Shown: positions 24,173 to 63,379 of the stretch, piece after piece
How the letters are laid out: every line of letters begins with the position of its first letter
Numbering within the stretch: position 1 is the stretch's first letter
Origin: an uncultured archaeon
GTDB lineage: Archaea > Thermoproteota > Bathyarchaeia > Bathyarchaeales > Bathycorpusculaceae
Direction: 5' to 3'
NCBI GenBank assembly: GCA_963810275.1
Contig: CAWENF010000014.1
Span: 113,578-177,577, forward strand
DNA: 64,000 bases
Notes under the pieces: model-generated
The model's input: only the letters and a program-made list of their open reading frames with translations
Told to the model about the DNA's origin: nothing
Databases searched by the model: none
Made by a program: the position numbers and the translations under genes

Positions 24173-24676
24173 TTAGTTGACTACTTCGATGTTAAGCACA
24201 CAAAAGTTCCCAGTGAACACGTAGCCGCCCCACTCGTTCTGCATCCACAACTCAAAAACCACCGAATGCGCCCCAACCGTGTTCTCCGACACCAACATTT
24301 GAGTCTGCATTGTTTGCCCGTCTGGCACAGCCAAATCCACAGTGCTGATTGGATCAACAGGGACACCGTTAGGGATACTTACGGGCAGGTACTCTGCGAT
24401 TTTAACCTGTACCTGATAGTTTTTGTCCATGTTTTGGTGGTTGCTAACCTGCACGTAGACACTAAAACTGCTGTTTTGGTTTGCGACTAAAACCGTGGGG
24501 TAATTGATGGCTTGCTGCTCTGTATCCAGCAGGCTTATGCTACTATACGGTTCAGGTTTAGGCCCAAACCAAACGTAGTAAACAGCCACCGTTGCGGCGA
24601 CAACGATTAAGGCGATGAAAACTGCCGCTAAAACGCCGCGGTCATCGCTTAAACCGATTCGCCTTCCAATGCGCAT
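24173..24676 (-). CDS. DUF1616-like membrane-anchored protein
   Basis: N-terminal TM, 'EPYSSISLL....AINYP', 'VVFELW'. Confidence 0.65.
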   Translation of the reverse strand: MRIGRRIGLSDDRGVLAAVFIALIVVAATVAVYYVWFGPKPEPYSSISLLDTEQQAINYPTVLVANQNSSFSVYVQVSNHQNMDKNYQVQVKIAEYLPVSIPNGVPVDPISTVDLAVPDGQTMQTQMLVSENTVGAHSVVFELWMQNEWGGYVFTGNFCVLNIEVVN

Positions 24677-25379
24677 AGCAAACCCTGAATGTCTTTGCAT
24701 CCAAAAACCCCTTAAAGATAGTGCTAAAAATCCTAATTCCCGACTGCAGAGGCCTCAGCTTAGTTTCACCATAAGTTCTGGGCTTATAGGTTGTGGGAAT
24801 CTCCGCCATGTTATAGCCTTCCCTTGCGAACTGAATCAACATCTCTGTGGCAAACGGCATGTCAGTTTCCTTGAAGTTCACGCTGTCATACTTGTCACGG
24901 TCGATAGCGCGGAAACCCGACTGGGTGTCGCTTAGGAATTGGCTGTAGAAGAAGTCATATGTGAAGGTGATGGCTTTGTTGCCAAGGAAATTGAAGAAAC
25001 CCATAGCTTTTTTGGGGTCATACATTCGGGTAGCTAAAACCAAGTCAGCGTCTTTCTCAACTAAGCGGCTGACTAAGCGGTCAATGTGCTTAAATTCGTA
25101 GGTTCCGTCTGCATCAACCATGATTAGAATGTTGCCTTTAGCGTTTTTCAAGCCAGTCCGAAGCGCCAAGCCGTAGCCACGTCTGGGTTCAATGATGAGA
25201 CGGCATTTGCCCGTCTGCTTAACTAAGTCAATTGTACCGTCGGTAGAGTTGCCGTCAACTATTATAATTTCTTTGGGGTAAGTAGTGTACTTGTCGATTG
25301 TGTTGATGGCGTCAAGTATTGTTCCTGCTTCGTTAAGTGTTGGGAGGACCACCGAGACTAGTTCAACTTTGGAAGTCAT
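24642..25379 (-). CDS. GT2 glycosyltransferase (DPM synthase-like)
   Basis: 'VVLPTLNE', 'VDGNSTDGT', 'GYGLA', 'DADGTY', 'DTQSGFR'. Confidence 0.9.
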   Translation of the reverse strand: MTSKVELVSVVLPTLNEAGTILDAINTIDKYTTYPKEIIIVDGNSTDGTIDLVKQTGKCRLIIEPRRGYGLALRTGLKNAKGNILIMVDADGTYEFKHIDRLVSRLVEKDADLVLATRMYDPKKAMGFFNFLGNKAITFTYDFFYSQFLSDTQSGFRAIDRDKYDSVNFKETDMPFATEMLIQFAREGYNMAEIPTTYKPRTYGETKLRPLQSGIRIFSTIFKGFLDAKTFRVCYAHWKANRFKR

Positions 25380-25424
25380 CAGGTAACATCCGTTCTGTGA
25401 GGTTATATTGTTTCCGTCTTGATG

Positions 25425-26591
25425 TTAAATAAGCTCTTCGTATAATTCCGTTAGCCTTAAAACGTTTGCGTCCCAGCTGAACCGTTCCTCGACTAACGAG
25501 TGGATTTCAGAGCGCTGTAAAGTGAAGTCTCTGGCTGCAAGTTCCAGTATTGCGTCGGCTAACATCTCAGGGTTGCTGGGAGGAACCATTTTGCCGTACT
25601 CTTTGGGCAGGATTTCTTTTATGCCGCCCACGTCTGTTGCCACAACAGGCAACCCACACGCCATCGCCTCATTAGCAACCAGCGGCAGCCCCTCCCCAGA
25701 TTTGGAGGGCAACACAAACAAATCCGCTAAATTGTAGTACGAAGGCAAATCAAAGTCACTTACAAAGCCCGTAAGGCGGAAGTTGCTGGATAATCCAAGT
25801 TGCGCCACCTGGGCTCGGACGCTTTCCAAGTCGGGGCCCTTCCCAACGGCAACAAATACAATTTTGGGTTTTTTTGCTACGACAAGTTTGGCGCAGTCGA
25901 GCAGAGTGTCGACTCCGTTCTTGTAAACTAGTCTGCGGACAGTTAAAGCTACCACAGCATCAATAGGGATGCCGAGTTTGCGCCGCATTTCATCACGCCT
26001 ACCCTTGATGATGTTGAAGCGTTTTGTGTCGACGCCGTTGTAGATCACTGTTATTTTCTTTGGCTTAGCGCCCAATCGTAGCACATAGTTTTTGGTTGCA
26101 CCACTGATGGCTACTATTTTGTCTGCTGCGCTGAGGTTTTGTTTCCCTACAGAGAGGTCATTAATTAATTCAATTTGGTCGAAGATATTGTTGTATTCTA
26201 TGAACGTGTTGTGTTGTGTTAAGATGAAGGGTTTACCATAAAACTTTGCTAGTTTCCCAGCAAGAAGCGAAGTGAGATAAGGGTGTCCGTGGGCGTGCAC
26301 TATGTTTGTGGCTTTGACGTTTTTTGTAAAGACGAGAAAGCTGGGGATTGTTGGTATCGAGTAGGGAATTCCGAGGCGGAAGCCGGTGTTTATTGATTCG
26401 TAGCATTCAACAGGAACGCCATCCACTACATACCTCGTGGGCGTGTCGATGCGGTTAGTAACCACTTTGGGCAAATAGTTCAGGTGCAGCAGCCGTTTGC
26501 TCTGCTCGTTTGTGACTATTTCTATACCGCCAACATGAGGCAGAAAAGTATGTGTAATTATGCAAACGCAATTTTTAGCCATAGATGCCAA
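25425..26591 (-). CDS. GT4 glycosyltransferase
   Basis: 'GGIE', 'IYNGVD', 'EGLPLVANEAMACGLPVV'. Confidence 0.9.
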   Translation of the reverse strand: MASMAKNCVCIITHTFLPHVGGIEIVTNEQSKRLLHLNYLPKVVTNRIDTPTRYVVDGVPVECYESINTGFRLGIPYSIPTIPSFLVFTKNVKATNIVHAHGHPYLTSLLAGKLAKFYGKPFILTQHNTFIEYNNIFDQIELINDLSVGKQNLSAADKIVAISGATKNYVLRLGAKPKKITVIYNGVDTKRFNIIKGRRDEMRRKLGIPIDAVVALTVRRLVYKNGVDTLLDCAKLVVAKKPKIVFVAVGKGPDLESVRAQVAQLGLSSNFRLTGFVSDFDLPSYYNLADLFVLPSKSGEGLPLVANEAMACGLPVVATDVGGIKEILPKEYGKMVPPSNPEMLADAILELAARDFTLQRSEIHSLVEERFSWDANVLRLTELYEELI

Positions 26592-26639: not shown

Positions 26640-27125
26640 CTAAGCTTTTACGCCGCCAGCCGCCTTAAGCGCCTTCGTATACACGTTGCTTGATGCACCC
26701 GCAACCAAAGCGCCAATAGCATCGTTGGTTAACGGGGGCAACTCGCTCAGGATGCCGGGTTTGGCTTGGTCAAATCTGACAAACTCAAACATACCCCTTG
26801 AACCCCCGATGTAAGTAGCAATAGCGATGCCGATAAGTTCATCCGCAACCAACCCAGGCTTGCCCATGAAGCGCTCCACGGACAAACCTGGAATCCTGCC
26901 ATTCTGAGCTTCTTCCTGCGCATGAAACGCGGCAACGATGAGTGTGGAAACGTTGACATCTTCGAGTATGTCGAGAAACTCTTCAGTTAGAAGTGCCGTG
27001 GCTTTTTCAAATGTCTCTATGCCTGGGTGAGGCACATACATTTCAAGAGCACTGTCGATTAGGCTTTTAAGTGAGATTCCCTTGCCTTCGAGGTATGTTA
27101 AGAGCGGCGGGTTGGGTTTGGTCAT
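26640..27125 (-). CDS. cobZ: alpha-ribazole-phosphate phosphatase CobZ (archaeal PgpA-like)
   Basis: 'LVADELIGIAIATYIGG..GMFEFVRFDQAKPGIL..LPP..NDAIGALVAG'; divergent from cob operon. Confidence 0.85.
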   Translation of the reverse strand: MTKPNPPLLTYLEGKGISLKSLIDSALEMYVPHPGIETFEKATALLTEEFLDILEDVNVSTLIVAAFHAQEEAQNGRIPGLSVERFMGKPGLVADELIGIAIATYIGGSRGMFEFVRFDQAKPGILSELPPLTNDAIGALVAGASSNVYTKALKAAGGVKA

Positions 27126-27370
27126 GGTTTTTCGCCGCTTTTTTAGTGGGTGATGTTTGTTTTAAGTGTTGTGAGACGGTATTGCGTAAGCCTTATATGA
27201 AAAGGGTGGATAAACCAACCAACACGGTTGCAGGAAATAGCTAAACATAAAGCAAACCAAGCTGAATCCAGCCAAAAAATCAGGTTTCAGCGATCACATT
27301 TAATGTTTGACAAGTAAAACCTATATTTTCCTGTTTAACCGTTCCTAGTAAATCAGGAGTAAAACCAGCT

Positions 27371-28039
27371 ATGAAAGTTGTTGCTTCATGGAGCGGCGGC
27401 AAAGATAGCGCCTACGCATACGTCCTTGCCAAACAGCAAGGCCACCAAGTCCTATCACTCTTAACAATGATGATGAGCGAGGAGAAATCCAATTTCCACA
27501 TGATACCCACAGGCATACTTGACGCTCAAGCTAACGCCATCAGGTTGCCTCTGCTTAAGAAAACAACCTCAGCCGAAACCTATGAAGCCGACTTCAAAGG
27601 CGTCCTAACCGATTTCAAAAATCAAGGTGCAGAGGGCCTGGTGACAGGCGACATCTACGAGGTTGCTGGACATGAAGAAGGATGGTTAGCGCGCATCCTG
27701 AAAGAAGTTGGTTTAGTAGCCGTTAAGCCGCTTTGGATGGGGGACACAAAGCAGATTTACCTTGACTACCTCAAGTCGGGTTTGAAAGCCACCGTTGTCC
27801 GCACCAACCGCGAACTAAGCTTAGATTGGCTGGGACGAGTTTTGGACCACCAATTCTACGATGACATCCTAAAACTGTCAGGCGTGGATCCCTGCGGTGA
27901 AGGCGGCGAATACCACACCGTCATAACCGACGGCCCAGACTTTATTCAAAAGGTCGAGATTCTGGAAGGGGAAAAGAAACGCTTAGATAACGGGTTTGGC
28001 TACATGGAAATAAAGAAGTGGAAAGTAACCTCCAAGTAA
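27371..28039 (+). CDS. Dph6-like PP-loop ATP pyrophosphatase
   Basis: 'SWSGGKDS', 'GDI', 'PLW', 'DPCGEGGEYHT'. Confidence 0.85.
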   Translation: MKVVASWSGGKDSAYAYVLAKQQGHQVLSLLTMMMSEEKSNFHMIPTGILDAQANAIRLPLLKKTTSAETYEADFKGVLTDFKNQGAEGLVTGDIYEVAGHEEGWLARILKEVGLVAVKPLWMGDTKQIYLDYLKSGLKATVVRTNRELSLDWLGRVLDHQFYDDILKLSGVDPCGEGGEYHTVITDGPDFIQKVEILEGEKKRLDNGFGYMEIKKWKVTSK

Positions 28040-28047
28040 GGTTGACC

Positions 28048-29139
28048 ATGATGGATGTTCTTGTTGCGAATAATGAGTTGAAAGCAAAAGCTTTCCTTGA
28101 AGAAATCGAAGCCAAAAACCCCCTGTTTATAGCGACCATTGCCACGACTGAGACGGGTAAGATACCCGGGTTGTCGGCGGCTGGCGCAAATCCTGACTTC
28201 ACCGATTTTACGCCTCCTGCGGATGCGGAGCTGCTGCTTCTCGGCAAATGCCGCTCAATTCAGGGCGTCCCAATCACTCCAGATGGCATACCAACACCAG
28301 CACTCATAACAACTTCTGCGTTGCACATAGCAGACATTCCAGTGCTTGTCGTTAACGGAGGCGTAAAAGTCAAGCCCCAAATCCCCTACATTGACGTAAA
28401 CGGCAACCCTGGACGCGACATCCGAACAGGCAACAGCGTTGACAACGTCGAAGAAGTCATCGAACGCTCATCAGTCGTAGGCGAGCAACTTGCCAAATCG
28501 GCAGGTTACCTTGTTATCGGCGAATCCATCCCAGGAGGCACCACCACTGCGTTGGGCGTCTTGACAGCTATGGGCATTAACGCTCATGGGAAAGTCAGCA
28601 GCACCCTGCCAGAGAACCCCCACAATCTAAAAACCCAAGTTGTCGAAAGCGGACTAAAAGCAGCTGGAGAGAAGTTCGGCAACTTCAGAGGCGATCCAAT
28701 AAAGTCGGTTTCTGCAATTGGTGACCCCATGATGGCGGCTGTTGCAGGCTTAGTGATTGGTGGCAGCAGGCAGGGTCCAGTATTGATGGCTGGCGGAACC
28801 CAAATGACCGCCGTCTTAGCAGTGATAAACGTTCTCAAGCCCGAAGCTCTGTGTAACATTGCAGTCGGAACCACCAGATGGGTAACAAAAGACAAGTCCA
28901 GCGACATTGTAGGCATAATTAAACAGTTCTGCGATGTACCAGTCCTTGCAGCAGACCTCGATTTCGGTCCTTCCCAGTATCCGGGACTGCAAATCTACGA
29001 AACAGGTCTAGTCAAAGAAGGCGTAGGCGCAGGTGGCTCATCAATTGCCGCCATGGCGAAAACTGGCGGCGCAGTTACTAAGCAAATTCTTCTTAAGGAG
29101 ATAGAGCGTAACTATGCCTCACTGAAGCAATCAAAGTGA
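28048..29139 (+). CDS. cobT: archaeal-type NaMN:DMB phosphoribosyltransferase CobT
   Basis: 'TPPADAELL', 'PTPALIT', 'GESIPGGTTTA', 'GDPM', 'AGGTQM', 'KEGVGAGG'. Confidence 0.9.
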   Translation: MMDVLVANNELKAKAFLEEIEAKNPLFIATIATTETGKIPGLSAAGANPDFTDFTPPADAELLLLGKCRSIQGVPITPDGIPTPALITTSALHIADIPVLVVNGGVKVKPQIPYIDVNGNPGRDIRTGNSVDNVEEVIERSSVVGEQLAKSAGYLVIGESIPGGTTTALGVLTAMGINAHGKVSSTLPENPHNLKTQVVESGLKAAGEKFGNFRGDPIKSVSAIGDPMMAAVAGLVIGGSRQGPVLMAGGTQMTAVLAVINVLKPEALCNIAVGTTRWVTKDKSSDIVGIIKQFCDVPVLAADLDFGPSQYPGLQIYETGLVKEGVGAGGSSIAAMAKTGGAVTKQILLKEIERNYASLKQSK

Positions 29140-29146
29140 GACACGC

Positions 29147-29935
29147 TTGGTAGTTAGGCAACTCAAAAACCTCCTCTCTTTTCTAACCGTTTTCCCAGTT
29201 CAAATGGACATGAATATGTTCACGGATTGCGCCAGAAACATGTGGGCTTTCCCGCTCATCGGTGGGTTTATGGGCTTAATTGTGGGCGTAATCAGCTTAT
29301 TCGCGTTAGCTGTTTTGCCCAGCATTGTCGTTGGAGCAATTGCATTTGGGCTGATTTTGTGGTTAACGGGCTTGCACCACACCGACGGCTTGCTGGATTT
29401 CGGCGACGCAGTCATGGTTCACGGAACATTCCAGCGCAGAATCGAAGTTATGCATGACCAACTTACAGGTTCAGGAGCAATCGGATTAGCCATAGTGACG
29501 TATTTGGTTACGGCAGCTGCGTTTACCAGTTTAGCATTGGGATCAGCCCAATTCTTTGGAATCATTTTGATACCAGCAATTGTGTTCGGCTTAATCCTGA
29601 TTGAGCTCTGTGGCAAGCTGTCGATGGTTGTTATGGCTTTTAGAGGCAAAGCAGTACATGAAGGAATGAACACCTCTTTCCTTATGCATATGCATGGGAG
29701 AGGCGGCGACCTGCGGTTGGCGGCTGCTTTGGGAATCTCGCTGGCGTTAGCGTTTGTGCTTTTCCAGTTCGATGGTCTCTTAGTAGTTTTGGTAGCTGTC
29801 GTCACATCCCTAGTCATGGTTGAGGTGGCACATAGAAAATTCGGCGGCGTCACAGGGGACGTCTTTGGAGCAACAAACGAAATCACACGTATGATATGCG
29901 CAGTGACATTAGTAGCGGTGATTACATGGGTATAG
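29147..29935 (+). CDS. cobS: cobalamin synthase CobS, copy 1 (canonical motifs)
   Basis: 'LTGLHHTDGLLDFGD', 'MHD..TGSG', 'FGGVTGDVFGATNE'. Confidence 0.92.
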   Translation: MVVRQLKNLLSFLTVFPVQMDMNMFTDCARNMWAFPLIGGFMGLIVGVISLFALAVLPSIVVGAIAFGLILWLTGLHHTDGLLDFGDAVMVHGTFQRRIEVMHDQLTGSGAIGLAIVTYLVTAAAFTSLALGSAQFFGIILIPAIVFGLILIELCGKLSMVVMAFRGKAVHEGMNTSFLMHMHGRGGDLRLAAALGISLALAFVLFQFDGLLVVLVAVVTSLVMVEVAHRKFGGVTGDVFGATNEITRMICAVTLVAVITWV

Positions 29936-30546
29936 CGGCGTTAGTTATGGCTGGCGGGAAGGGCACCCGCATGAAACTAAACATGGAAAAGCCTCTGATT
30001 GAAGTCGGCGGCAAACCAGTTATAGAGTACGTTTTGACAGCGCTAAAAAGAGCTCGAAAAATTGACCGGGTCATAGTCGCTACTTCGCCTGCGACGCCAA
30101 AAACCACGGCTTTAATGACGCAGCTTGGAGTCGAAGTAATAAGAACCCCAGGTAAAGATTACGTGTCGGACATGGGCTATACTGTGCAAACGCTTAAGTT
30201 AGGTGTGTTTTTAGCTATCGCAGCCGATTTGCCCCTGATTAAACCCGAAATGATAGACGCAATCGTTACCCGCTACGAGGAGTGCGGGAAGCCAGCGTTG
30301 ACGGTCGCGGTTCCGCTTTCGGTTAAAGATCGGCTGGGCATGTGCATCGACTACTCATTTAAGGAAGGCGAACAAGACTTGGTTCCGGTTGGCATAAACG
30401 TGATTGACGGCAGCAAACGTTATGGCGACGAATGGCTGGACCAAGACATTTTTGTACTTGACTGCGAAGAGTTGGCTGTTAACATTAACACCGTGGCAGA
30501 GTTGAAGTTGGCTGAAGAGACGTTGGCGGCGCTGCTAAAAAGGTAA
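29926..30546 (+). CDS. cobY: adenosylcobinamide-phosphate guanylyltransferase CobY, copy 1
   Basis: 'MAGGKGTRM...EKPL', 'TPGKDYVSD', 'ADLP', 'NINT'; follows cobS. Confidence 0.88.
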   Translation: MGIAALVMAGGKGTRMKLNMEKPLIEVGGKPVIEYVLTALKRARKIDRVIVATSPATPKTTALMTQLGVEVIRTPGKDYVSDMGYTVQTLKLGVFLAIAADLPLIKPEMIDAIVTRYEECGKPALTVAVPLSVKDRLGMCIDYSFKEGEQDLVPVGINVIDGSKRYGDEWLDQDIFVLDCEELAVNINTVAELKLAEETLAALLKR

Positions 30547-41171: not shown

Positions 41172-41180
41172 TGTTAATCC

Positions 41181-41594: not shown

Positions 41595-41648
41595 AAAACT
41601 AACCCTCCAAAAAATAATATACTATAAATTATTATTGTGAATCGATGT

Positions 41649-43911: not shown

Positions 43912-44045
43912 ACATTTGAGGTTTTAATGTGTTTAAGCCCATGTGATTGTGCAGCAGCAACAACACAGGTATTTTGCATCGGTAACTCGCCACATTGTTT
44001 ATATTTAGCCTCGAAGAAGTGCCTCGGAGGAAGAGGGAAGGGAAA

Positions 44046-52364: not shown

Positions 52365-53849
52365 TTATGCTTTCTTTTTCTTAGCTCCGTTTTGCTTAGC
52401 TATGTAGGCTTTCTCTATTTCGACACGGTGCACGTTGTTGTAGGCGCAGAACGGAATAATCTTCTTGTCCGGCGTGATGTAGTGGACGACGCAACGACGG
52501 ACACGGTTTACGTCAAAATTGTAGCTGTCCATAAACGCCATGCATCCCAAAAGGAATATTCGACGTCGTATTTTCCCCAGCGCCTGATACGAGGGGTTCA
52601 TGTGCATTTGTAGAATGCTCTTAATCAACGTAAAAGTACCCACTTCCTTAGTAACCAGCAGCATATCCATCGAAATCATTGAACCCATAAACAGTGAGGA
52701 CAGAAGCGAGAATTTCCCTTTGGATTCGGCTGACTCCGCCGTTTTCCTGATAGTATTGAAGAAGCGGTCAAAATTCACAAACCGGTTAATGGGAAACATT
52801 TTGCCTGTTCGGGACGACACATAAACCCAGTTCACGATTCCACACTGCGGACTACAGCTAAACAAGGGCCAAGGTTTCTGCATGAATTTGCGCATGATTT
52901 TAATGGGCGAAGTCATAACAGACATGGGAAACAAGTCGGTGGTTTTTACTTCGCCGTTGGTCTGCGTCTCCACGTCCTCGGCGAAAGACCATTCGCGGAA
53001 GTTTTCTCGGAACGGGTTCTCGGTTGCTCTGCCGGTGAAAGCGATGGGTTGGAAGATTAAGCCTCGGATGATATCGGTGTTTTTAGCTGCGAACCGTATC
53101 ATGTCGCCGACTTCCGCGTCGTTTAAGCTTTTCATTAATGTATTGACGAGGATGACTTCCATGTCGTATTTGCGACATACATTAATGGCTTTGAGTTTGA
53201 TGTCCACCAAGGGTAGACCACGGACTTTCTTGTTGAATTCTTCATGGAAACTGTCAAAGGACAGGTAGACGATGTTTAAGCCGCTGTCTTTTAGGCGTTG
53301 GGCTAAGCCTGGGTCGGTAACTAGGTGGGTGCCGTTGGTCGCCAAGATCGTCATGAACTTCAGTTTGTGTGCGGCGGCTATGATTTCGGGCATGTCTTCG
53401 CGCTCAAGTGGTTCCCCTCCGCTAAACAGAATTGCTGGTGGTTTGGGGTTGGCTTTGGCAGCGAATTCAAGCATGTCAATGAGGTTTTCTTTGGTGGGTT
53501 CGTAGTCGTCGCCTTGGTCGGGGAAAGTACTGAAACACACTGCACAGTGGAAGTTGCAGCGTTTGGTGACGTCGATGACTCCTATGACTGTACCTGAAGC
53601 GTGATTTTGACAGGTTTCGCAGATGTAAGGGCAACCATCGGGGTTTTTAGGTGCATTGAGGTCGCCCAGATACTGGAATTGGTCATACTTTTTCATGTGG
53701 TCCCAGATTGGTGGGCTTTGCCAATGGGTTGCTTGGAATTCGCCATGTTCGGGGCATTGTTTGGTAATTTGGATTTTGCCGTTTACGTTAGAGAGTTGGG
53801 CGTCAATCTTTTTTTGGCATTCGGGACAGATGCTTTTGGTTTCACTCAC
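52365..53849 (-). CDS. tes: tetraether lipid synthase Tes (GDGT-MAS)-type radical SAM enzyme
   Basis: N-terminal 'CPEC..CPEHG', 'GCPYICETCQNH', rSAM 'CNFHCAVC', 'CSPQCG', C-terminal 'MAFMDSYNFD..RVRRCVVHY..PD..IIPFCAYN'; next to DGGGP synthase. Confidence 0.85.
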   Translation of the reverse strand: MSETKSICPECQKKIDAQLSNVNGKIQITKQCPEHGEFQATHWQSPPIWDHMKKYDQFQYLGDLNAPKNPDGCPYICETCQNHASGTVIGVIDVTKRCNFHCAVCFSTFPDQGDDYEPTKENLIDMLEFAAKANPKPPAILFSGGEPLEREDMPEIIAAAHKLKFMTILATNGTHLVTDPGLAQRLKDSGLNIVYLSFDSFHEEFNKKVRGLPLVDIKLKAINVCRKYDMEVILVNTLMKSLNDAEVGDMIRFAAKNTDIIRGLIFQPIAFTGRATENPFRENFREWSFAEDVETQTNGEVKTTDLFPMSVMTSPIKIMRKFMQKPWPLFSCSPQCGIVNWVYVSSRTGKMFPINRFVNFDRFFNTIRKTAESAESKGKFSLLSSLFMGSMISMDMLLVTKEVGTFTLIKSILQMHMNPSYQALGKIRRRIFLLGCMAFMDSYNFDVNRVRRCVVHYITPDKKIIPFCAYNNVHRVEIEKAYIAKQNGAKKKKA

Positions 53850-54751
53850 TATAGTAGCACTCCAGCGATTCCTTCAACTATCAATGCTAAGGGTAGCAGC
53901 ATCATGGACATGGTGACTATGCGCTCATATTTGCGTATGCTTGCAACAGTAGAAGCGGACGTGAAGAGGCGCAGAGCTGAATAAATTAACAATACACTCC
54001 AAATTAGAATAAGCGGCAAATAATACAAAGAGAACGCGCCAATCAACGTTGGCAGTGGGGCGAGTATGCCTGTTAGGAAGAAAAAGACTCCACCGACTTT
54101 TGCTGCACTAATGTTGCCGATTTTCTGCGGCAAAGTGGGGTAGCCGACTTTTGCGTCGCCCTCCACGCTGAAAATGTCGCGTAACACATTGCCGCCGATG
54201 GTGCCAAACGCGATGGGATAGAGACTTAACGAAGCTAAGGTTATGGTTCCGGTTACAGTTGCTTGACCGTAAATGAAGGCAGTGCCCGTCAACACACCCA
54301 TCAACAAGTTTGCTGCGAAGCCTGATTTCCTTTTAATCAAGTAAGAATAAATGAGTAACAGAACAGAGTCTAAGACTATAATGGCAAAGGCAAGCCAGTT
54401 AATGAGAAATGAGATTACTAGCCCTAGGGCAAAAAATAAGGCAGCGATAGTTATTGCTTGCTTGTAGGAAAGAGCGCCCGAAGGGATTGGTCGTTTGGGT
54501 TTTATGACGGCGTCGCTTACGCGGTCGTAGTAGTCGTTTATTGCAAACCCGCCTGAAGCAATGAAGGATAGCGAAAAGAAAGTTAGCAATGCCACGACTG
54601 CCACGTTCATTGGACCTAAAAACGTTTGGACGCCAGCAAAGTTGCCGTTTAGGATGGCGAACGCTGTTAGAACTGCCAAGCCGCCAGTCATTAGCCAGTA
54701 GGGTAGGCGTATAAGCGCTATTAGTCCTCGTGCAGGCGAGGAAGAGGTCAT
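53849..54751 (-). CDS. digeranylgeranylglyceryl phosphate synthase (UbiA family)
   Basis: 'INDYYD..SD..KP.RPIPSG', 'RDIFSVEGD..GYPTLP'. Confidence 0.85.
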   Translation of the reverse strand: MTSSSPARGLIALIRLPYWLMTGGLAVLTAFAILNGNFAGVQTFLGPMNVAVVALLTFFSLSFIASGGFAINDYYDRVSDAVIKPKRPIPSGALSYKQAITIAALFFALGLVISFLINWLAFAIIVLDSVLLLIYSYLIKRKSGFAANLLMGVLTGTAFIYGQATVTGTITLASLSLYPIAFGTIGGNVLRDIFSVEGDAKVGYPTLPQKIGNISAAKVGGVFFFLTGILAPLPTLIGAFSLYYLPLILIWSVLLIYSALRLFTSASTVASIRKYERIVTMSMMLLPLALIVEGIAGVLL

Positions 54752-55674
54752 ATCTTAATTTTCCTGTCAGCGATGACTTCTTTTATGCTGTCCTCAAGGG
54801 TGACTTGAGGGGTCCAGCCAAGTTCGTTTTGGGCTTTTGTTATGTCGAACCAGATTTTGGTTACGTCCCCCTGCCATGATACACCTGTGGTGCTGACTTT
54901 GGTTCTGTTTTGGAGTTTAAGGATTGAAAGTATAAGGTCTGCGAGCTCGAGAATTGAAGTTGTTTTCCCTAAGCCCAAGTTGTAGACTTCACCATTGACG
55001 TCTTTATTATCGCCAAGAAGCACCAGCGCTTCCACCACGTCGGATACATGCACGAAGTCGCGGCATTGCTTGCCAGTGCCTATGATTTCGAGTTTATCGG
55101 GATTTTTGGCGAGTTTTTCTAGAAAGTCATGGATGACACCGTGGCAGCGCAGCCCGTAGACGTTTGCGAAGCGTGTGATAACTATGTCTAAGCCATATTG
55201 TTCACGGTACATTTGGCAATACTCTTCACCCACCACTTTACTCAAGCCGTAGCACGAGAAGGGGTGAAAACCATAAGATTCGGGTGTGGGAAACACTGTT
55301 GGGTTGCCGTAGACGGCTGCAGAGGAAGCGAAAACGACTTTGGCGTCGTCTTTGCGGGCTTTTTCCAGAACGTAGAGAGTGCCTTTGGCGTTGGTTTCAA
55401 AATCCGCCAGAGGGTTTTCCATTGAGTAGCCGACCACCACCTGTGCGGCTAAATGATAAATTAAGTCCTGTTTAGGCTGGTTTAGGAGGGTTTTAAGGTC
55501 TAAAATGTCACCTTGCACGAATTTTGCCCCGGGAATATCTTTGATATTCTGCATTGTCCCGCTAGAAAGGTTATCGTAAATGGTCAAGTTGTCTGTTAAG
55601 CCAGAAAGTCTCTTGCAAAGGTGGTACCCTATGAATCCAGCGCCACCTGTTACTAGGATTTTTTTCTCTTCCAC
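54748..55674 (-). CDS. NAD-dependent nucleotide-sugar epimerase (GalE-like)
   Basis: 'TGGAGFIG', 'HLAA', 'SSAAVYG', 'YGLSK', 'RDFVHV'. Confidence 0.9.
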   Translation of the reverse strand: MEEKKILVTGGAGFIGYHLCKRLSGLTDNLTIYDNLSSGTMQNIKDIPGAKFVQGDILDLKTLLNQPKQDLIYHLAAQVVVGYSMENPLADFETNAKGTLYVLEKARKDDAKVVFASSAAVYGNPTVFPTPESYGFHPFSCYGLSKVVGEEYCQMYREQYGLDIVITRFANVYGLRCHGVIHDFLEKLAKNPDKLEIIGTGKQCRDFVHVSDVVEALVLLGDNKDVNGEVYNLGLGKTTSILELADLILSILKLQNRTKVSTTGVSWQGDVTKIWFDITKAQNELGWTPQVTLEDSIKEVIADRKIKI

Positions 55675-55730
55675 GTTGTTCCCCCGAAGACGATAAAGTC
55701 TATATTCTCTTTAGGCGAGTTGGTAGGTAT

Positions 55731-56579
55731 ATGTCGGCGATGAAAGCTATAAAAGTTTTCAAGGATTTGCTGTCTTTCCTCACAATCATCCCAATGGGTG
55801 GAAAAGAGGATTTTATCTTCACGACCGCGGAGAACATGTGGCTTTTCCCAATTGTCGGCGGCTTCATAGGCTTACTGGGCGGAGCGTATTTTCTGCTTTC
55901 CAGCGTAATCATCGGTTTCGCACTCAACTTTATCACAGGATATATAGCTTTTCCGACAGCATTGCTAGCCACAGCCATCCCTGCAGCCATGACAATTGCC
56001 TTCCTGCTGGTAATCACTGGCCTGCAGCATTTTGACGGTTTAATAGATTTAGGCAACGCAGTTGGAATACGCAATGTACACGACCGCAAAATGAAAGCCC
56101 ACGCTTGGACAGTCACCTACGCGGGAGCCGTCCTAGCAATTGTGGTAGAATTCCTCGCGTTCCTCGGCTTGTTTTTACTTTACCCATCTAATCCGCTGAT
56201 GATTTTTGGCGCCATCATTATAGCCGAGGTATCGGCCAAACTTGCCATGGTCACCATCGTTTGGGCAGGCAAACCATCTCATAAAGGGTTAGGCTCAATT
56301 TTCTTGGCAAAAGCCAAAAAACCGCTTAACGCCGTTGCCTATGTGATCTCCGCCATGATAGTTTTCTCAGTGTTTTTCTTTGTCGGCGGCATATTCTGGG
56401 CATTGACTGCGACTGGGCTACTGTTTGTAAGTGTTCCCGTGGCGTTTCTGATGAACAAGGTCTCCAATAATGTGTTTGGAGGCGTTTCAGGCGACATGAT
56501 AGGTGCAACCAATGAAACCGCACGTGCGGTGGCTTTTGCTGCATTGGCATTAGTATTTTGGCTGGTGATGGCTGCATGA
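55731..56579 (+). CDS. cobS: CobS-like membrane phosphotransferase, copy 2 (divergent)
   Basis: 'SFLTIIP', 'ITGLQHFDGLIDLGNA', 'FGGVSGDMIGATNE'. Confidence 0.8.
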   Translation: MSAMKAIKVFKDLLSFLTIIPMGGKEDFIFTTAENMWLFPIVGGFIGLLGGAYFLLSSVIIGFALNFITGYIAFPTALLATAIPAAMTIAFLLVITGLQHFDGLIDLGNAVGIRNVHDRKMKAHAWTVTYAGAVLAIVVEFLAFLGLFLLYPSNPLMIFGAIIIAEVSAKLAMVTIVWAGKPSHKGLGSIFLAKAKKPLNAVAYVISAMIVFSVFFFVGGIFWALTATGLLFVSVPVAFLMNKVSNNVFGGVSGDMIGATNETARAVAFAALALVFWLVMAA

Positions 56580-57199
56580 AGGTGCCTGCTTTAATCATGG
56601 CTGGGGGGAAAGGCAGCCGCATGGGATTGCCCACTGAGAAGCCGATGCTACCGTTCATGGGCAAACCTTTGCTGGACTGGGTAGTTGCTGCGGTCTTAGA
56701 GGCAAAAAAGGTTTCGGATTTCTGTGTAATTACAAGTAACAATACGCCTAAAGCTGAACATCACTGCAAGGAGCGGGGCTGGAGGTTCATTCACACCGAT
56801 GCAAATGGATACCACAACGACTTGAAACAGGCAGTCCGCAGTTTGGGGTGGACAGGACCAGTACTTACTATGCCGTCGGATGTGCCAGCTATCACTGGAC
56901 CCATACTTGATAGAGTTGTCTCAGGGTTTGAGAGCTGCGGCAAAGACTACCTCGCCGTATTCGTCCCAATAGAGTGCCGTCAAGCCTTGGGATTGTCGAT
57001 TTCATCAACCGATGAATACGAGGGCGTCTGGTATGCAGTATCAGGAGTCAACATCATTAACGGCGCCAAAACGCTTGGGCAAAGCAAAATCGAAACCGCT
57101 GCCATCATCACCCAAGAAGTTGAAGTGGTTCTAAATGTGAATACGACCAAGGATTTTGAAGTTGCAGAGCAGATAATGAGGAAAAAAAGAAGATCTTGA
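56576..57199 (+). CDS. cobY: CobY-like nucleotidyltransferase, copy 2
   Basis: 'MAGGKGSRM...EKPM', 'GYHNDL', 'SDVP', 'NVNT'; ATGA overlap with cobS2. Confidence 0.8.
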   Translation: MKVPALIMAGGKGSRMGLPTEKPMLPFMGKPLLDWVVAAVLEAKKVSDFCVITSNNTPKAEHHCKERGWRFIHTDANGYHNDLKQAVRSLGWTGPVLTMPSDVPAITGPILDRVVSGFESCGKDYLAVFVPIECRQALGLSISSTDEYEGVWYAVSGVNIINGAKTLGQSKIETAAIITQEVEVVLNVNTTKDFEVAEQIMRKKRRS

Positions 57200-58318
57200 T
57201 TAATTTGTTTCGTTAAGAACCCGCTTGATTGTTTCCACGAGTTTTTGGTTGTCTTTTGCGCTTCTGATGGTGACTCGGAAGTAAGTGTCGTCCATGCCCA
57301 TGAACGTACAGCAGTCGCGAATTAGGATATGCTCCTGTGCCAATGCTTCTTTGAGTTTGGTAGATGTGAATTTTCCGTTTAGTATTTTCACCAAGAGGAA
57401 GTTGGTGGTTGATGGATGCACCTTAAAGTCTCCGAGGGCTTCAAGGTCTGCTGCAAGTTTAGCCCGGTTCTCTGTGATTGTTTTCTTTGTTGTCTTAATG
57501 AATTCGAAGTCGCTAAAAGCGCCCAATGTGGCAACTCGTGCTAAGCCGTTTATACTCCAGGGCTGCCGCGCAGTTTCCAGCTTGTTGATTAGACTTGGCG
57601 CCGCAACTGCATAGCCAAAACGCAGACCCGCTAAACCGTAGAATTTAGTGACACTACGAATCACAAACAGGTTGGGGTATTCTTCTACCATGTCCACCAC
57701 TGTGTTCGGGTCACCTTCGGCTGCGAATTCGATATAGTTTTCATCAATGCTAAAGATGATGTCACGATGTTTGCAGAATGAAACGAGGTCCATGATTTCC
57801 TCTTTGGTGTAGAGTCTGCCGCTTGGGCTGTGGGGGTTGCATATGCATAGGATTTTTGTGTCGGGGGTTACTGCCGCTTTAATTTTCTCTAACTCCATTC
57901 CGAAGTCGGGTGGAAGCTGGACAAAGACTGGTTCGCCATCTACCCTCAGCGCCGCCTTCTCGTATTCGGAAAACGACGGGATGGGAATGAGGGCTTTGAA
58001 GCCTTTGGGAAGGATTTCGGTTATCATGTAGATGAGTTCGATTGAGCCATTGCCCAGCAAGATGTTTTCTGCTTTAACGCCATGACCAACGTTTTCTGCG
58101 ATTTGTTGTTTAAACTCAACGGGGTTTGGGTCAGGGTAGAATTTGATTAGTCGAGCGTTTTCTATTACGGCTTGGACTGCTTTGGGAGGCGGCCCCATGA
58201 AGTTGATTGGACCACTAAACTCTAAGACTTCGTCTAGGGGAATGTTGTGTTTTCTGCTGAAACCCCAGATGTCGCCACCATGGCTAACGAAACGACGTTC
58301 CTTGCAAGCACCCGTCAT
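57200..58318 (-). CDS. cobD: L-threonine-O-3-phosphate decarboxylase CobD (PLP fold I)
   Basis: 'HGGD', 'YPDP', 'GNGSIELI', 'CNPHSPSG', 'RSVTKFYGLAGLRFGY', 'ILIRDC'; real start probably ATG 58318. Confidence 0.85.
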   Translation of the reverse strand: MTGACKERRFVSHGGDIWGFSRKHNIPLDEVLEFSGPINFMGPPPKAVQAVIENARLIKFYPDPNPVEFKQQIAENVGHGVKAENILLGNGSIELIYMITEILPKGFKALIPIPSFSEYEKAALRVDGEPVFVQLPPDFGMELEKIKAAVTPDTKILCICNPHSPSGRLYTKEEIMDLVSFCKHRDIIFSIDENYIEFAAEGDPNTVVDMVEEYPNLFVIRSVTKFYGLAGLRFGYAVAAPSLINKLETARQPWSINGLARVATLGAFSDFEFIKTTKKTITENRAKLAADLEALGDFKVHPSTTNFLLVKILNGKFTSTKLKEALAQEHILIRDCCTFMGMDDTYFRVTIRSAKDNQKLVETIKRVLNETN

Positions 58319-58858
58319 TTTACTTGTTCCTCCATCAGCCGAGCGAGCTCTTTCTCCACTACGACGGTCTGCCTTGTAGTGAGCGTTATACAAGTTAACG
58401 AGTTTGTAGAGCCAATACACTGCACCGGCACCCAACGTGACAATTGTAATCAAAACATATGATGTTAACGGTATAGTCTGCGTCATAAAGACCCTCTCGG
58501 GCAAGGCAGCGGCGAGAAACTGGTCTTCTCGTTGCTCGTGGACTTGGATGTCTTTGCTTAGTTTGTAGATGAGGATGAATGCAGGGATAATTAGGATTAT
58601 GCTTGCAGCCCATAGCTTAGCGTTGCGCTCCTTAATCGGAGCCGCTGGTGGAGGCGGCGCTTTGCCTTTACTCTGCAGGTAAGCTGCGACTTGGCGTTCA
58701 ATCTCAGCTTGCTTTTTCAGATGCAGGTTTCTGCCCTCAACGAGGCGGTGGAACATGGGGAAAAATGCAACGCCGAAAGTAACCAAAGCCCCTAAAAACC
58801 ACATCGAAAACCAGACTTTACGGTCGCTTAAGCCTTTCGTATATGTGGAGGACTGCAT
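58315..58858 (-). CDS. small membrane protein (DUF4234-like), joined to cobD in the ORF track by an apparent frameshift
   Basis: Repeated TM motif 'GALVTFGVAF'/'ITIVTLGAGAVYWLYK'; alternative frame ends 'EKELARLMEEQVK*' with ATGA overlap on the cobD start. Confidence 0.6.
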
Positions 58859-58941
58859 TTTGCCCAGACTTTCCCGTCGATTCCTGTCAAGGTTGGGGTA
58901 GCCAAACTTTATAAGGTCTTCCATTGACGGTTTAGATTAAA

Positions 58942-59640
58942 ATGGTTAAATGTCAAATCCCGCTTTCCATTATAATCCCCGTTTACAACGAGGAGTTAAC
59001 GGTAGGCAACATAATTGACCGTACGGAAGCGGCGGCGCGGAAGCTGGGTTTGCCTTTTGAAATCATAGTTATCAACGACTTCTCCTATGACCGCTCTCTG
59101 CAGGAGGCGCTAAAACGTAAGGTGAGGGTATACACGCTTAAGGAGCACAGCGGCAAAGGCTATGCATTGCGAGCGGGTTTTAGCCAGGCACGAGGGGATG
59201 TGATTGTAACGATTGATTCGGATGGTTCGCATTGGCCTGAGGAGCTGCATGAAGTGCTGGCACCAGTCTTGGCTAACCGAGCGGACATGGTTATCGGTTC
59301 ACGTTTCATGAACCACAAGCACGTAGCGGCACGTAAGCTCAACAAGTTTGGCGTCAGCATATTCAACCAATTAATACAGATGTTCACGGGTGTAGGCATA
59401 ACCGACAGTCAATCAGGATATAGGGCGATGAAAAGAGAAGTGCTGGCTGGGCAAAAACTAAAGTCAGGTGAATACGAAATAGAATCTGAAATGCTTGTAA
59501 AAACCGCTAAAGCTGGCTTTCGAGTCGCCGAGGTCCCCATAACCTTTGAGCAGCGCACCTACGGCAGGTCGGGTGTGGATCCCATGGTCGACGGCAGTAA
59601 AATCATGCTTTCAATCGTTATGGCATATTTGAGGGGGTAA
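58942..59640 (+). CDS. GT2 glycosyltransferase (DPM synthase-like)
   Basis: 'IIIPVYNEE', 'GKGYA', 'DSDGSH', 'DSQSGYR'. Confidence 0.9.
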   Translation: MVKCQIPLSIIIPVYNEELTVGNIIDRTEAAARKLGLPFEIIVINDFSYDRSLQEALKRKVRVYTLKEHSGKGYALRAGFSQARGDVIVTIDSDGSHWPEELHEVLAPVLANRADMVIGSRFMNHKHVAARKLNKFGVSIFNQLIQMFTGVGITDSQSGYRAMKREVLAGQKLKSGEYEIESEMLVKTAKAGFRVAEVPITFEQRTYGRSGVDPMVDGSKIMLSIVMAYLRG

Positions 59641-59642
59641 AA

Positions 59643-60632
59643 AAGGCGGCTGCGGAATACCCCAAAGTTTCAATCATCGTTGCATCCTACAACAACCAAG
59701 ACACCATCGCAGAATGTTTGGAGGCGCTATTGGCACTTGATTACCCCAAAGGCCACTTTGAAGTCATAGTGATGGATGGCGTCAGCAAAGACGACACGGT
59801 TAAAATTGCAGAGCAGTATCCGGTTAAGGTGGTTTCTATTAGGCTAAACTGTCCCGCAGCCTACAACTACGTTTTCAACATTGCTTCGTATCCCATTTTT
59901 GGGTTTGTTGACTCAGACGCCAAAGTGGAGCAGAGTTGGCTTAGAAAACTCGTTCCACACCTGTCTGAGCCACAGGTGGCCGGGGTAAGCGGGAGCATTG
60001 AAACCTGGAATCAGGATAATCCATGGGCGAGGAGCATCGGGTATGAGCTAAAAGCCCGCTACAGCCGCATAGGTCAATACACGGGCAGAATCGCCACCAT
60101 GAACCTGCTGCTCAAAAAAGAGGTCATAGCTGAGGTGGGAGGCTGGGATGAGGGGTTCCCAAGCCAATATGACACGGACTTCGGCTTCCGAATGTCCAAA
60201 CTAGGCTACAAAATCGCGTACGAACCCGCCGCAGTTTGTTACCACTACAACCGTCCCACGCTCAAAGCGTTTTATCGTCAGCAGCGCCAGTACGGGAAAA
60301 ACACGTTACGACTCTACTTCAAGCATGGGAACTTGGTGAAGGGCGACGAAATCACCGATTTAGGCATGAACATCCAGCCTATCCTGCTGCTTGCCGCTGT
60401 TGGGTTGTTTGTGTTCGGAATAATTCCGCCTCTGAGACTGTTATGGCTTGGTTCTGGGCTGATTCTTCTAGGGATGCTTGTTTACTTTGTCTACTCGGCC
60501 ACTAAAGTCTCCAGCAAGTTTGGGGACTGGTCGGCGATGCGACTTGTCGTGCTTTTCTATGTGCGTTTGGCAGCGTGGTTTGTCGGCGCAGTAGCGGCAT
60601 CCATAAAGTACATTTCAGCGAGGAACCGCTAA
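59643..60632 (+). CDS. GT2 glycosyltransferase with C-terminal TM helices; start codon not evident
   Basis: Frame extends upstream of 59718 to 'EYPKVSIIVASYN'; 'MDGVSKD', 'FVDSDA', 'QQRQY'. Confidence 0.85.
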   Translation, partial: KAAAEYPKVSIIVASYNNQDTIAECLEALLALDYPKGHFEVIVMDGVSKDDTVKIAEQYPVKVVSIRLNCPAAYNYVFNIASYPIFGFVDSDAKVEQSWLRKLVPHLSEPQVAGVSGSIETWNQDNPWARSIGYELKARYSRIGQYTGRIATMNLLLKKEVIAEVGGWDEGFPSQYDTDFGFRMSKLGYKIAYEPAAVCYHYNRPTLKAFYRQQRQYGKNTLRLYFKHGNLVKGDEITDLGMNIQPILLLAAVGLFVFGIIPPLRLLWLGSGLILLGMLVYFVYSATKVSSKFGDWSAMRLVVLFYVRLAAWFVGAVAASIKYISARNR

Positions 60633-61830
60633 ATGCCAGCCTAAAGTCTGCTTCATCAGCCCCGAGTATTGGCCTCTCACAGGCGGCACAGGCAGCTATG
60701 TCTACTATCTCAGCAGTCAACTGCTCAAAAACGGCCACTCCATCTATGTGGTGACGGGCGCAAACCAGCATAAAGACGTTCATGTAAACCCTCAGCTTGA
60801 CGTGTCGTTCCTCAAAATCCCCAAAATGCCCATTGTAAAGTCTTTTATGTTGGCACAGGCAAGCAGCCGCAAACTCCAAAGCGTAAAAGCCACAGCCGAC
60901 ATTGACATTGTGGCTCCCCAAATGCCCCTAACCCCAAACTTCGCGGTACCCCCCAACTTTGGAAAAACACTTGTCTGCACTGTGCACTCCACCTGGAAAG
61001 GCGAAGCTGAAGCTATCCGAGCAGAACCCTACCTCCGCTTAAACGCTAACGAAAAGTTCCTCGTCAGCTTCAACGGATTTTTGCGGTTCTTCGAGGAAGG
61101 CATGATTCATCGAGCCCGAAAAATCATTGCTGTAAGCCACTTCACCAAGTGGGAACTCACCAACTACTACAAGATTCCAGCGCACAAAATCAGGGTAATC
61201 CATAATGGGGTTGATATCAACAAGTTCCAGCCCACTGAGGACAAAGCCAAAGTTAAGGCCCAGTTTGGGCTAAAACCTGACCACCTCGCCATAGTCTCCG
61301 TTGGGAGGCTGTATGCGCGAAAAGGCTTATTCACGCTTATCGAGAGCATGCCCGCCGTCGTCAAACGGTTCCCTAAAGCCAAATTTATTATTTCAGGCAA
61401 GGGACAAAGCGATGAAATGCAAAAACTCATCGCACACGCCACCCGCCTCGGAGTCATCGACAACATCGTCTTCACAGGCTACACACCCGACGAAGAGTTG
61501 CCTAAGCTGTATCAGGCGGCGGACGTGTTTGCATTTAGCACCTTCTATGAACATCACCCGTTTGCGGTTTTGGAGGCGCTGTCCACTGGGTTGCCCGTGG
61601 TGACAACAACTGTTGGGGGAATCCCAGAAACAATAGAAAGTGGCAAAAACGGCATGCTGGTGGCACCATTCAGCTCAACGCAGTTTTCAGACGCCATACT
61701 CCACCTGCTTGAACACCCAAAAGAAGCAGCGGAGATGGGCAAAAAAGCCCGTGGAACAGTCGTGAAGGAACTGGACTGGCGCATAGTTGTCAAAGATGCC
61801 ATGGAAGTCTATGAAGAAGCCCTAAAGTGA
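60633..61830 (+). CDS. GT4 glycosyltransferase (frameshift just after ATG 60633)
   Basis: Upstream frame reads 'PKVCFISPEYWPLTGGTGSY'; 'IHNGVD', 'VGRLYARKG', 'LEALSTGLPVV'. Confidence 0.88.
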
Positions 61831-62953: not shown

Positions 62954-63379
62954 TGTCACAGAAGTGGACCAGGGGGTTTTGAACCGTATTGGGTTCAAAG
63001 ACTATTTAGAGTTGATAGAGATAGGAAGACAAAACGGATAAGGGCGAAAGACAACATGTTAGTGTAGGAGAGTAAATCAAAATAAAAAACAAGGCAAAAA
63101 ACAAAGCAAAAAATCAAACTAAAAAAGAGAACCAGACAAAAAATAAAGGAAAAAAGGATTGGAAGCAGAGATAAAAAAAACTAAAAAGGAACAGCGCCAC
63201 CCCAAAACGCGTCGTTTAATTCTTAACTTTCCTCTGTTAGTATATTTCTTTAAAAATCAATTCAGTTTGGTCCACTTAGTCAGCACAATTCCTCTGTTAC
63301 AAGTCAATGCTGCTAAGCTGGTTCAGCATTAAATTACAGTTAAAGGAAGGTAGCCCGGATTTGACGAGGGTAAAGACTC

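Follow-up and report, generated by a model that had tools for sequence, protein, structure and literature searches.

We analyzed a window of 64,000 nucleotides from the genome of a soil archaeon of the Bathyarchaeia (contig CAWENF010000014.1; genome G000; assembly completeness 92.6%) that encodes two copies of CobS, a membrane enzyme of cobamide synthesis. Our data indicate that the second copy, CobS2 (55731..56579, + strand), represents a real and constrained CobS subfamily that is clearly altered, and genome comparisons argue that it is non-redundant with the canonical CobS1. CobS2 lies at 52.4-61.8 kb in an accessory gene island, which is not a housekeeping lipid cluster, together with second copies of CobY and CobD and with divergent lipid and glycosyltransferase (GT) genes. 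We favor a reading, to which we give an even chance of being right, in which the CobS2 module is cobamide-directed and CobS2 joins an activated corrinoid to a non-standard partner or exchanges lower ligands.

Sequence and phylogeny of CobS2

CobS2 matches PF02654 with 93.6 bits (gathering score 23.2) over residues 14-268, which is its sole Pfam match, and is 31% identical to CobS1. Its TIGR00317 score of 99.5 bits falls below the cut-off of 110, while CobS1 scores 155 bits. CobS1 carries the motifs HTDGLLDFGD and ..VMHDQLTGSGAIG, and the corresponding motifs of CobS2 are HFDGLIDLGN and ..KMKAHAWTVTYAG. CobS2 departs from the loop-2 motif HxDxxxDxxD by having Asn at the third Asp, and it keeps the loop-6 motif GxxGDxxG (GVSGDMIG). 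A preliminary description of this DNA had reported HxDGxxDxxN and the absence of the MxD..G motif in CobS2, and both statements are exact by sequence comparison.

These features are fixed across the subfamily. HxDGxxDxxN and GxxGDxxG were found in 120/120 best CobS2 homologues, and Asn occupies the third Asp position in all five full-length (at least 230 amino acids, aa) representatives of the CobS2 clade, clustered at 50%. Among 120 full-length representatives outside the clade, the same position is Asp in 113, Thr in 1 and Glu in 1, with no motif match in the remaining 5. Two further residues are missing from the CobS2 clade, the canonical MxD Asp and a Gly, which outside it are 96% and 100% conserved, respectively, and the clade carries an insertion of 13-35 residues between the first two transmembrane (TM) helices. 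The idea that this insertion flips the topology of the protein was dropped as unsupported; the insertion varies in length over that range and lies between two TM helices. H100, D102, D106, E166, K170, GxxGDxxG, E262 and R265 are all kept in the clade, and the clade-specific residues Q99, N109, G112 and W126 are conserved at 96-100%. With reference to Salmonella CobS, the equivalents of H80, D82, D86 and D229 are kept in CobS2 and the D89 position is Asn. Excerpts of the Salmonella study report that D82A, D86A, D89A and D229A each abolish function in vivo (PMC8092220).

A search of 1.84 billion representatives returned only 16 proteins at E<=1e-30, the next being ordinary CobS proteins at <=38% identity. 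The preliminary description had proposed a phylogeny of both copies, and our tree (178 rows, including the CobS2 sequences and five representatives) resolves the second copy as a separate clade of 34 rows (Shimodaira-Hasegawa-like approximate likelihood ratio test, SH-aLRT, 99; stem 0.38). This clade is nested among archaeal CobS, apart from the Bathyarchaeia CobS1 clade of 22 rows (support 97). Within the window's family, median identity is 53.8% for CobS2 and 54.8% for CobS1. Since the within-family divergence of CobS2 equals that of CobS1, the CobS2 gene is under constraint. As a separate observation, the canonical-type CobS of a second family of the same order (f5; loci L105-L107) is only 31-38% identical to CobS1 of the window's family (f1). 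It stands alone without adjoining CobT or CobY, and it groups in the tree with other representatives outside the Bathyarchaeia CobS1 clade.

Distribution, partners and linkage of the copy-2 genes

We sampled 401 Bathyarchaeia genomes and, within f1, 111 genomes. All comparisons are among related genomes and without a species tree, and co-occurrence counts overstate independence. CobS2-type proteins were found only in f1 and f5, in 78 of the 401 genomes counting the window genome (approximately a fifth), and the other sampled families contain one canonical CobS each. Those single-CobS families have the gene orders CobD1-CbiB1-CobZ and DUF71-CobT-CobS1-CobY1, the orders of set 1, which is therefore the vertical set. 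In the window, set 1 occupies 26640..30546, 22 kb upstream of the island, and consists of CobZ (-), a DUF71/Dph6-like gene (+), CobT (28018-29139, +), CobS1 (29147-29935, +) and CobY1 (29896-30546, +).

Among the 111 f1 genomes, 32 contain CobS2 and all 32 also contain CobS1, six contain CobS1 only and 73 contain neither. The other copy-2 genes follow CobS2 closely: the 32 genomes include CobY2-type in 32, Tes2-type (the island's tetraether synthase) in 31, CbiB2-type in 29, and both CobD2-type and an orthologue of the island glycosyltransferase GT2b (at least 47% identity) in 26, most of the misses falling at the ends of contigs or in genomes that are incomplete. Tes2, CobY2-type, CbiB2-type and the GT2b orthologue were found in 0/73 f1 genomes without any CobS, and the GT2b orthologue in one of the 79 f1 genomes without CobS2. 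Outside the 32 CobS2 genomes, island-type genes occur only in G381, an 87% complete genome with fragments at contig ends; accordingly CbiB2-type is present in 0/5 of the other CobS1-only genomes, G381 being the sixth.

Loss has been unequal between the two sets. CobY1-type is missing in 8/32 CobS2 genomes and CobY2-type in 0/32, such that CobY2-type is the only CobY in those eight. CobD1-type was found in 17/32 compared to 26/32 for CobD2-type, and CbiB1-type is likewise often missing; in the genus g9 a single CbiB adjoins cobD2. In five of five related genomes examined (G389, G322, G387, G090 and G199), no CobY above 120 bits and no CobD above 270 bits exists apart from the copy-2 genes beside CobS2, and CobS1 is kept in all. 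CobT is kept in four of five genomes searched (G090, G199, G386, G322 and G387) and was not found in G387. CobS1 itself is never lost from CobS2 genomes (32/32), while CobY1, CobD1 and CbiB1 often are. Because set 2 is complete wherever the island is present, and of set 1 only CobS1, CobT and CobZ persist, CobS2 and CobS1 do not seem to be interchangeable.

We found that the partner proteins look like ordinary working cobamide enzymes. CobY2 (56558..57199, +), a paralogue of adenosylcobinamide-phosphate guanylyltransferase, overlaps CobS2 by 22 nt and is translationally coupled to it. It is 34% identical to CobY1, keeps MAGGKGSRMG and has Methanocaldococcus jannaschii CobY (2mzb/3rsb) as its best solved relative (E 8e-17). 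CobY2 scores 128 bits against the TIGR00454 cut-off of 174.7, and canonical CobY1 is likewise below at 155; the CobY2 clade is separated in the CobY tree with support of 100. CobD2 (57200..58324, -), a paralogue of L-threonine-O-3-phosphate decarboxylase, scores 282.4 bits against the TIGR01140 cut-off of 290.55, and CobD1, 35% identical to it, is also below at 284.4. Its best solved relative is Salmonella CobD (1lc5, E 1.4e-48); a lysine (in ..SVTKFYG..) and arginines (in ..ILIRDC.. and ..YFRVTIR..) line up between the two, and we take these to be the pyridoxal phosphate (PLP) lysine and phosphate-binding arginines. A norcobamide-type CobD was considered and rejected, as CobD2 matches Salmonella CobD with 169 bits but the 6oux enzyme, which is presumably norcobamide-linked, with only 93 bits.

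The preliminary description noted that no cbiB is present in the window. This holds for the whole of the window's contig, although the genome has two: a whole-genome PF03186 search matches contigs C11, where CobD1 and CbiB1 lie together, and C27, which carries CbiB2. In this assembly, but not in relatives, CbiB2 is split into two overlapping open reading frames (ORFs). Its surroundings (G000:C27:67000-86999, L014) include four B12-binding radical-SAM genes and a SAM methyltransferase, and C27 also carries CbiZ. Close to one end of C27, a radical-SAM/SPASM gene matches the gene beside the GT block in relatives, and therefore C27 and the window's contig may meet end to end. Cobyric acid synthase was not found with TIGR00313 in this assembly, which is 92.6% complete (best score 52.6 bits).

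The cobD gene had been described as part of a trio with cobS and cobY. A CobD-like part is indeed present, starting at Met201 of a 574-aa ORF (57200-58924), but this ORF is a separate membrane-protein gene, MP (58321..58924, -), fused to cobD2. MP encodes a 3-TM protein of approximately 180-205 aa with weak DUF4234/DUF6693 matches; its alignment (A2) has 22 invariant columns, with invariant His, Asp and Asn at the membrane edges. MP is a separate ORF in 24/26 related loci carrying both parts, directly followed by cobD2 of approximately 372 aa. DNA alignment and reading frames indicate that the window has an additional base near 58365, which puts the last ~17 MP codons out of frame and eliminates the MP stop; in the other frame, MP would terminate at a TGA overlapping the cobD2 ATG. 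The fusion in the window is either an assembly error or strain-specific.

On the far side of CobS2, the island carries Tes2 (52365..53849, -), a radical-SAM protein with an HMPTM-type zinc ribbon and a divergent second copy of the tetraether synthase; UbiA2 (53849..54751, -), a divergent second DGGGPS-like UbiA prenyltransferase matching PF01040; and an NAD-dependent sugar-nucleotide epimerase/dehydratase of the short-chain dehydrogenase/reductase type (54748..55674, -) that matches PF01370 and PF16363 and scores 173 bits as GalE, below the cut-off of 262. The view of this region as a tetraether-lipid cluster is correct in that the genes are present, but Tes and 'DGGGPS' here have diverged from their housekeeping paralogues, which lie on C19 and C20. 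Tes2 just passes NF045702 (459 bits, cut-off 450) and is 37% identical to Tes1 (C19:140893-142383), which scores 668 bits. UbiA2 scores 162.6 (NF009523) and 152.6 bits (NF009521), below the cut-offs of 269 and 296, and against the NCBIfam DGGGPS equivalog cut-offs it reaches 152.6 of 296 and 111.5 of 353. UbiA1 (C20:20304-21173), 31% identical to UbiA2, scores 237 and 178 bits in NF009523 and NF009521, respectively, and the f5 island copies share 45-47% identity with UbiA2 and 28-29% with UbiA1. Tes1-type is nearly universal, some Tes being present in 101/111 f1 genomes, and the f5 genomes G090 and G199 keep Tes1 away from the island. Genes annotated as 'Tes' and 'DGGGPS' and used as lipid markers can thus be accessory paralogues. 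One salt-marsh metatranscriptome gives thin evidence of transcripts in five short contigs: four match Tes2, the epimerase and GT2b at 99% identity or more, and another, with 17 differences, matches Tes2. CobS2, CobY2 and CobD2 have no cover in these five contigs.

Three GT genes complete the island: GT2a (58942..59640, +; PF00535), which resembles polyprenyl-phosphate hexose transferases and scores 150 bits in the AglJ-like TIGR04182 (cut-off 325); GT2b (59718..60632, +), a membrane GT2 with TM helices at its C-terminus; and GT4 (60748..61830, +), a GT-B enzyme whose family matches include glycolipid synthase families. GT2a diverges from MP-cobD2, and the CobD-like ORF is convergent with CobS2-CobY2. 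The ORFs confirm that the second cobS-cobY pair, cobD and three GT genes lie at the positions given in the preliminary description.

This linkage is conserved. Tes2-UbiA2-epimerase stands back to back with CobS2-CobY in 26/27 close-relative loci, L042 starting inside CobS2, and the same order recurs in 12 further f1 loci of other genera, of which four (L089-L092) lack the epimerase and have UbiA2 facing CobS2. No more than ~10 kb away lies the GT4-GT2b-GT2a<>MP-cobD2 block; its orientation varies, and a radical-SAM/SPASM gene often accompanies it. In f5 (8 loci, ~40% identity) the order is that of the window, CobS2-CobY2-cobD2<>GT2a-GT2b-GT4, and epimerase-UbiA2-Tes2 lies 2-5 kb off. The sub-blocks are shuffled and inverted between f1 and f5, still within ~15 kb, and the linkage of CobS2 to tes and GT genes proposed earlier extends across two families at ~40% protein identity. 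In f1 loci with both flanking ORFs called, the spacer between the epimerase and CobS2 is mostly 35-59 bp with a conserved TATA-like core. In the window it is 56 bp (55675..55730), divergent, with one such core (..AAAGYCTATATT..) located ~25 nt from both start codons, and we infer a shared promoter from this arrangement. In most relatives a DUF1616-GT2a'-GT4' trio lies between CobZ and Tes2, set 1 is ~3 kb from Tes2, and the whole forms one 20-25 kb locus; in the window, ~21 kb of unrelated genes (30.6-51 kb) separate set 1 from the island. In G102 and G094 (L110-L113), the gene after CobS2 is CobY1-type, and CobY2-type and CbiB2 come after CobT-CobS1. The CobY tree indicates that in these two genomes positions have moved, not sequences.

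Candidate functions of CobS2

Because CobD2, CbiB2 and CobY2 are sole copies in related genomes, they probably perform their ordinary jobs. CobD2 would make aminopropanol-phosphate, CbiB2 would attach it to cobyric acid and CobY2 would activate the product with GMP. CobS2, which alone in the module is never redundant, would take the GDP-activated corrinoid from whichever CobY is encoded alongside; given that its partners are ordinary, CobS2 is expected to take a CobY product, and the simplest donor is adenosylcobinamide-GDP (AdoCbi-GDP). The rebuilt cytoplasmic loop 2 of CobS2, with the third Asp changed to Asn, the MxD Asp lost and an extra insertion, may change the choice of partner. That partner would be other than the alpha-ribazole-phosphate used by CobS1, and a second cobamide-type product would be made or remodelled at the membrane. 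The co-inherited lipid and sugar genes would either share regulation with CobS2 or supply its partner.

The preliminary description had listed a different cobamide among its alternatives, and of the readings this fits best. Several points weigh against it. We see only one CobT and no second lower-ligand-activating enzyme, and hence no sign of another nucleotide acceptor. Inheritance of CobS2 follows that of Tes2, UbiA2 and the GT block near-perfectly, and CobS2 shares the 35-59 bp spacer with the lipid operon, a pattern that would also be consistent with a lipid- or glycan-directed role. By analogy with the Salmonella enzyme, Asn at a position where Ala kills activity could mean that catalysis is lost. 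Finally, the co-occurrence among relatives may go back to a single linked stretch of DNA that was gained or lost a few times.

It is unlikely, though deserving of some weight, that CobS2, instead of completing a soluble vitamin, draws on the GDP-activated donor made by CobY and attaches either a corrinoid or only the aminopropanol-phosphate arm, through a phosphate link, to a lipid or glycolipid of the membrane that Tes2, UbiA2, the epimerase and the GTs would build. Bathyarchaeia would then have a corrinoid anchored in the membrane or a novel polar head group.

We consider it quite unlikely that set 2 is a spare loop module hitch-hiking beside unrelated lipid genes, with CobS2 doing the job of CobS1. 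Paralogous cobamide genes do exist elsewhere, e.g., cobD1 and cobD2 in Haloferax volcanii (as described in excerpts of PMC8305020), the genomes examined are all related, and the short distance between set 1 and Tes2 in most relatives makes the whole region one super-locus. Ordinary redundancy would nevertheless leave unexplained why CobS1 is never lost when CobY1, CobD1 and CbiB1 often are, why sub-blocks that have been shuffled and inverted between f1 and f5 remain within ~15 kb, and why the active-site loop has been rebuilt and fixed.

There is a small chance that CobS2, like the non-catalytic partner listed among the alternatives in the preliminary description, is catalytically dead or regulatory, in which case it might hold CobY, MP-CobD2 and CbiB2 together at the membrane or work alongside CobS1. 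In favor of this are Asn in place of the third Asp, the missing MxD Asp, a TIGR00317 score below cut-off and the constant presence of CobS1; excerpts of the Salmonella work report D89A as null (PMC8092220). Against such a role, the equivalents of D82, D86 and D229 are invariant, as are E166, K170, E262 and R265, and the new residues Q99, N109, G112 and W126 are so well conserved that the active site looks changed and not decayed. Asn may, moreover, still bind metal.

We give little credence to a lipid- or glycolipid-anchored corrinoid, in which CobS2 would move cobinamide-phosphate from AdoCbi-GDP to a hydroxyl of an island-built archaeal lipid or glycolipid and yield a membrane-tethered, base-off corrinoid. 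We know of no precedent for such a molecule, and our literature searches turned up none. The co-inheritance and shared-promoter evidence would support it, it fits ordinary CobY, CobD and CbiB partners, and four B12-binding radical-SAM genes surround CbiB2 on C27. On the other side, family scans found no B12-binding enzyme encoded within the island, and the linkage may be historical. Excerpts of a recent preprint describe several archaeal lipid-tailoring enzymes, one of them from Bathyarchaeota, as B12-dependent radical-SAM proteins, those of Bathyarchaeota acting on membrane tetraethers (bioRxiv 10.1101/2025.10.20.683597); such enzymes favor this reading and are also one known, mundane link between corrinoids and lipids.

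The preliminary description had proposed that cobS, cobY and cobD form a self-contained, Kennedy-like route, in which CobD2 would make aminopropanol- or ethanolamine-phosphate, CobY2 would activate it with GTP and CobS2 would transfer it to an island lipid or glycan. The acceptor of canonical CobS is a sugar hydroxyl, and this route draws on the co-occurrence of Tes2, CobY2 and GT2b with CobS2 (31/32, 32/32 and 26/32, and 0/73 in genomes without CobS), on the neighborhood kept in f5 at ~40% identity, on the TATA-bearing spacer shared by CobS2 and the lipid operon and on the glycolipid synthase families among the GT4 matches. To our knowledge, there is no evidence of a CobY that accepts free aminopropanol-phosphate. 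Since CobY2, CobD2 and CbiB2 appear ordinary, this proposal is weakened, and it is disfavored by CobY2 and CobD2 being the sole CobY and CobD in 5/5 genomes that keep CobS1 (CobT being kept in 4/5 searched), by the vertical CobY1-type gene beside CobS2 in G102 and G094 and by the CbiB2 that travels with the set; the island is also never seen without CobS1 (0/73). We regard it as very doubtful.

Neighboring genes and known systems

Upstream of CobZ in the window lies a DUF1616 membrane protein gene with the GT2a' and GT4' paralogues (24173..26591, -). The DUF71/Dph6-like PP-loop ATPase (27371-28039, +) lies between CobZ and CobT, a position kept in other Bathyarchaeia families; a DUF71-B12 subgroup has been predicted to act in B12 salvage (PMC3541065). 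Just downstream of CobY1 is an AP-endonuclease-2/xylose-isomerase-like TIM-barrel protein (31024-31896, -), beside which lie an ECF-type CbiQ and two ABC ATPase genes (31945-34390). The cobamide-remodelling phosphodiesterase CbiR of Akkermansia belongs to the same superfamily and is typically found near cobamide genes, according to excerpts of PMC7733943, and the protein beside CobY1 may be an archaeal CbiR-like enzyme. Further along, a GT4 gene and a CBS-domain gene are flanked by two GH130 (mannoside phosphorylase-like) genes (40272-44939). The final 1.5 kb before the contig end (62441-64000) is free of ORFs >100 aa, its one feature being a short A-rich tandem repeat (63084-63126). No Rfam family reached its gathering score in 24000-64000.

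Neither a second CobS nor a link between CobS and lipids was described in any paper that our literature searches retrieved. Excerpts of a Bathy-6 genome study describe B12 synthesis and CbiZ/BtuFCD salvage genes and do not mention the CobS duplication (PMC11697101). Why the last steps of B12 synthesis sit at the membrane is posed as an open question in excerpts of PMC8092220.

Tes2 and UbiA2 share domain architectures with Tes/GDGT-MAS and DGGGPS; unlike the housekeeping enzymes, they are second copies (37% and 31% identical) that occur only in CobS2 genomes. The Kennedy pathway, with its cytidylyltransferase and CDP-alcohol phosphotransferase, is a formal analogy only: there too, a phospho-alcohol is nucleotide-activated and then transferred at the membrane to a hydroxyl, but CobS2, which matches only PF02654 in Pfam scans, has no homology to the CDP-alcohol phosphatidyltransferase family. 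The copy-2 enzymes resemble M. jannaschii CobY (3RSB/2MZB) and Salmonella CobD (1LC5) in keeping the nucleotide-binding signature and the aligned lysine and arginines, although CobY, CobD and CbiB of copy 2 each share only 34-47% identity with their vertically inherited copy-1 counterparts. Unlike Salmonella CobD, cobD2 is coupled, and in the window fused, to a conserved 3-TM protein.

The closest known counterpart of CobS2 is cobamide (5'-phosphate) synthase, the CobS of Salmonella enterica (PF02654, TIGR00317): CobS2 has a full-length CobS domain, is a polytopic membrane protein, keeps the His, Asp and Asp of loop 2, GxxGDxxG of loop 6, E166, K170, E262 and R265, and, as for known CobS, its gene lies directly upstream of and overlaps a CobY gene. 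It differs from known CobS in that every member has Asn at the third Asp, has lost the MxD Asp and the next invariant Gly and carries the insertion of 13-35 residues, and in that it scores below the TIGR00317 cut-off, always occurs with a canonical CobS and adjoins lipid genes instead of CobT. CobS2 is thus a natural, strongly conserved CobS variant with a rebuilt substrate loop, travelling with spare lipid and sugar-transfer genes. Once known, its product may bring to light another cobamide or a remodelling pathway in abundant, mostly uncultured archaea that depend on corrinoid enzymes or, alternatively, a link between corrinoids and membrane lipids. Excerpts of PMC7733943 list Vibrio cholerae CobS among enzymes with cobamide-remodelling activity; together with CbiZ and CbiR, it is a precedent for CobS in lower-ligand exchange, and remodelling by CobS2 would be an analogy with this enzyme. 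As in such remodelling systems, the window genome encodes CbiZ (C27) and an AP-endonuclease-2 protein beside CobY1.

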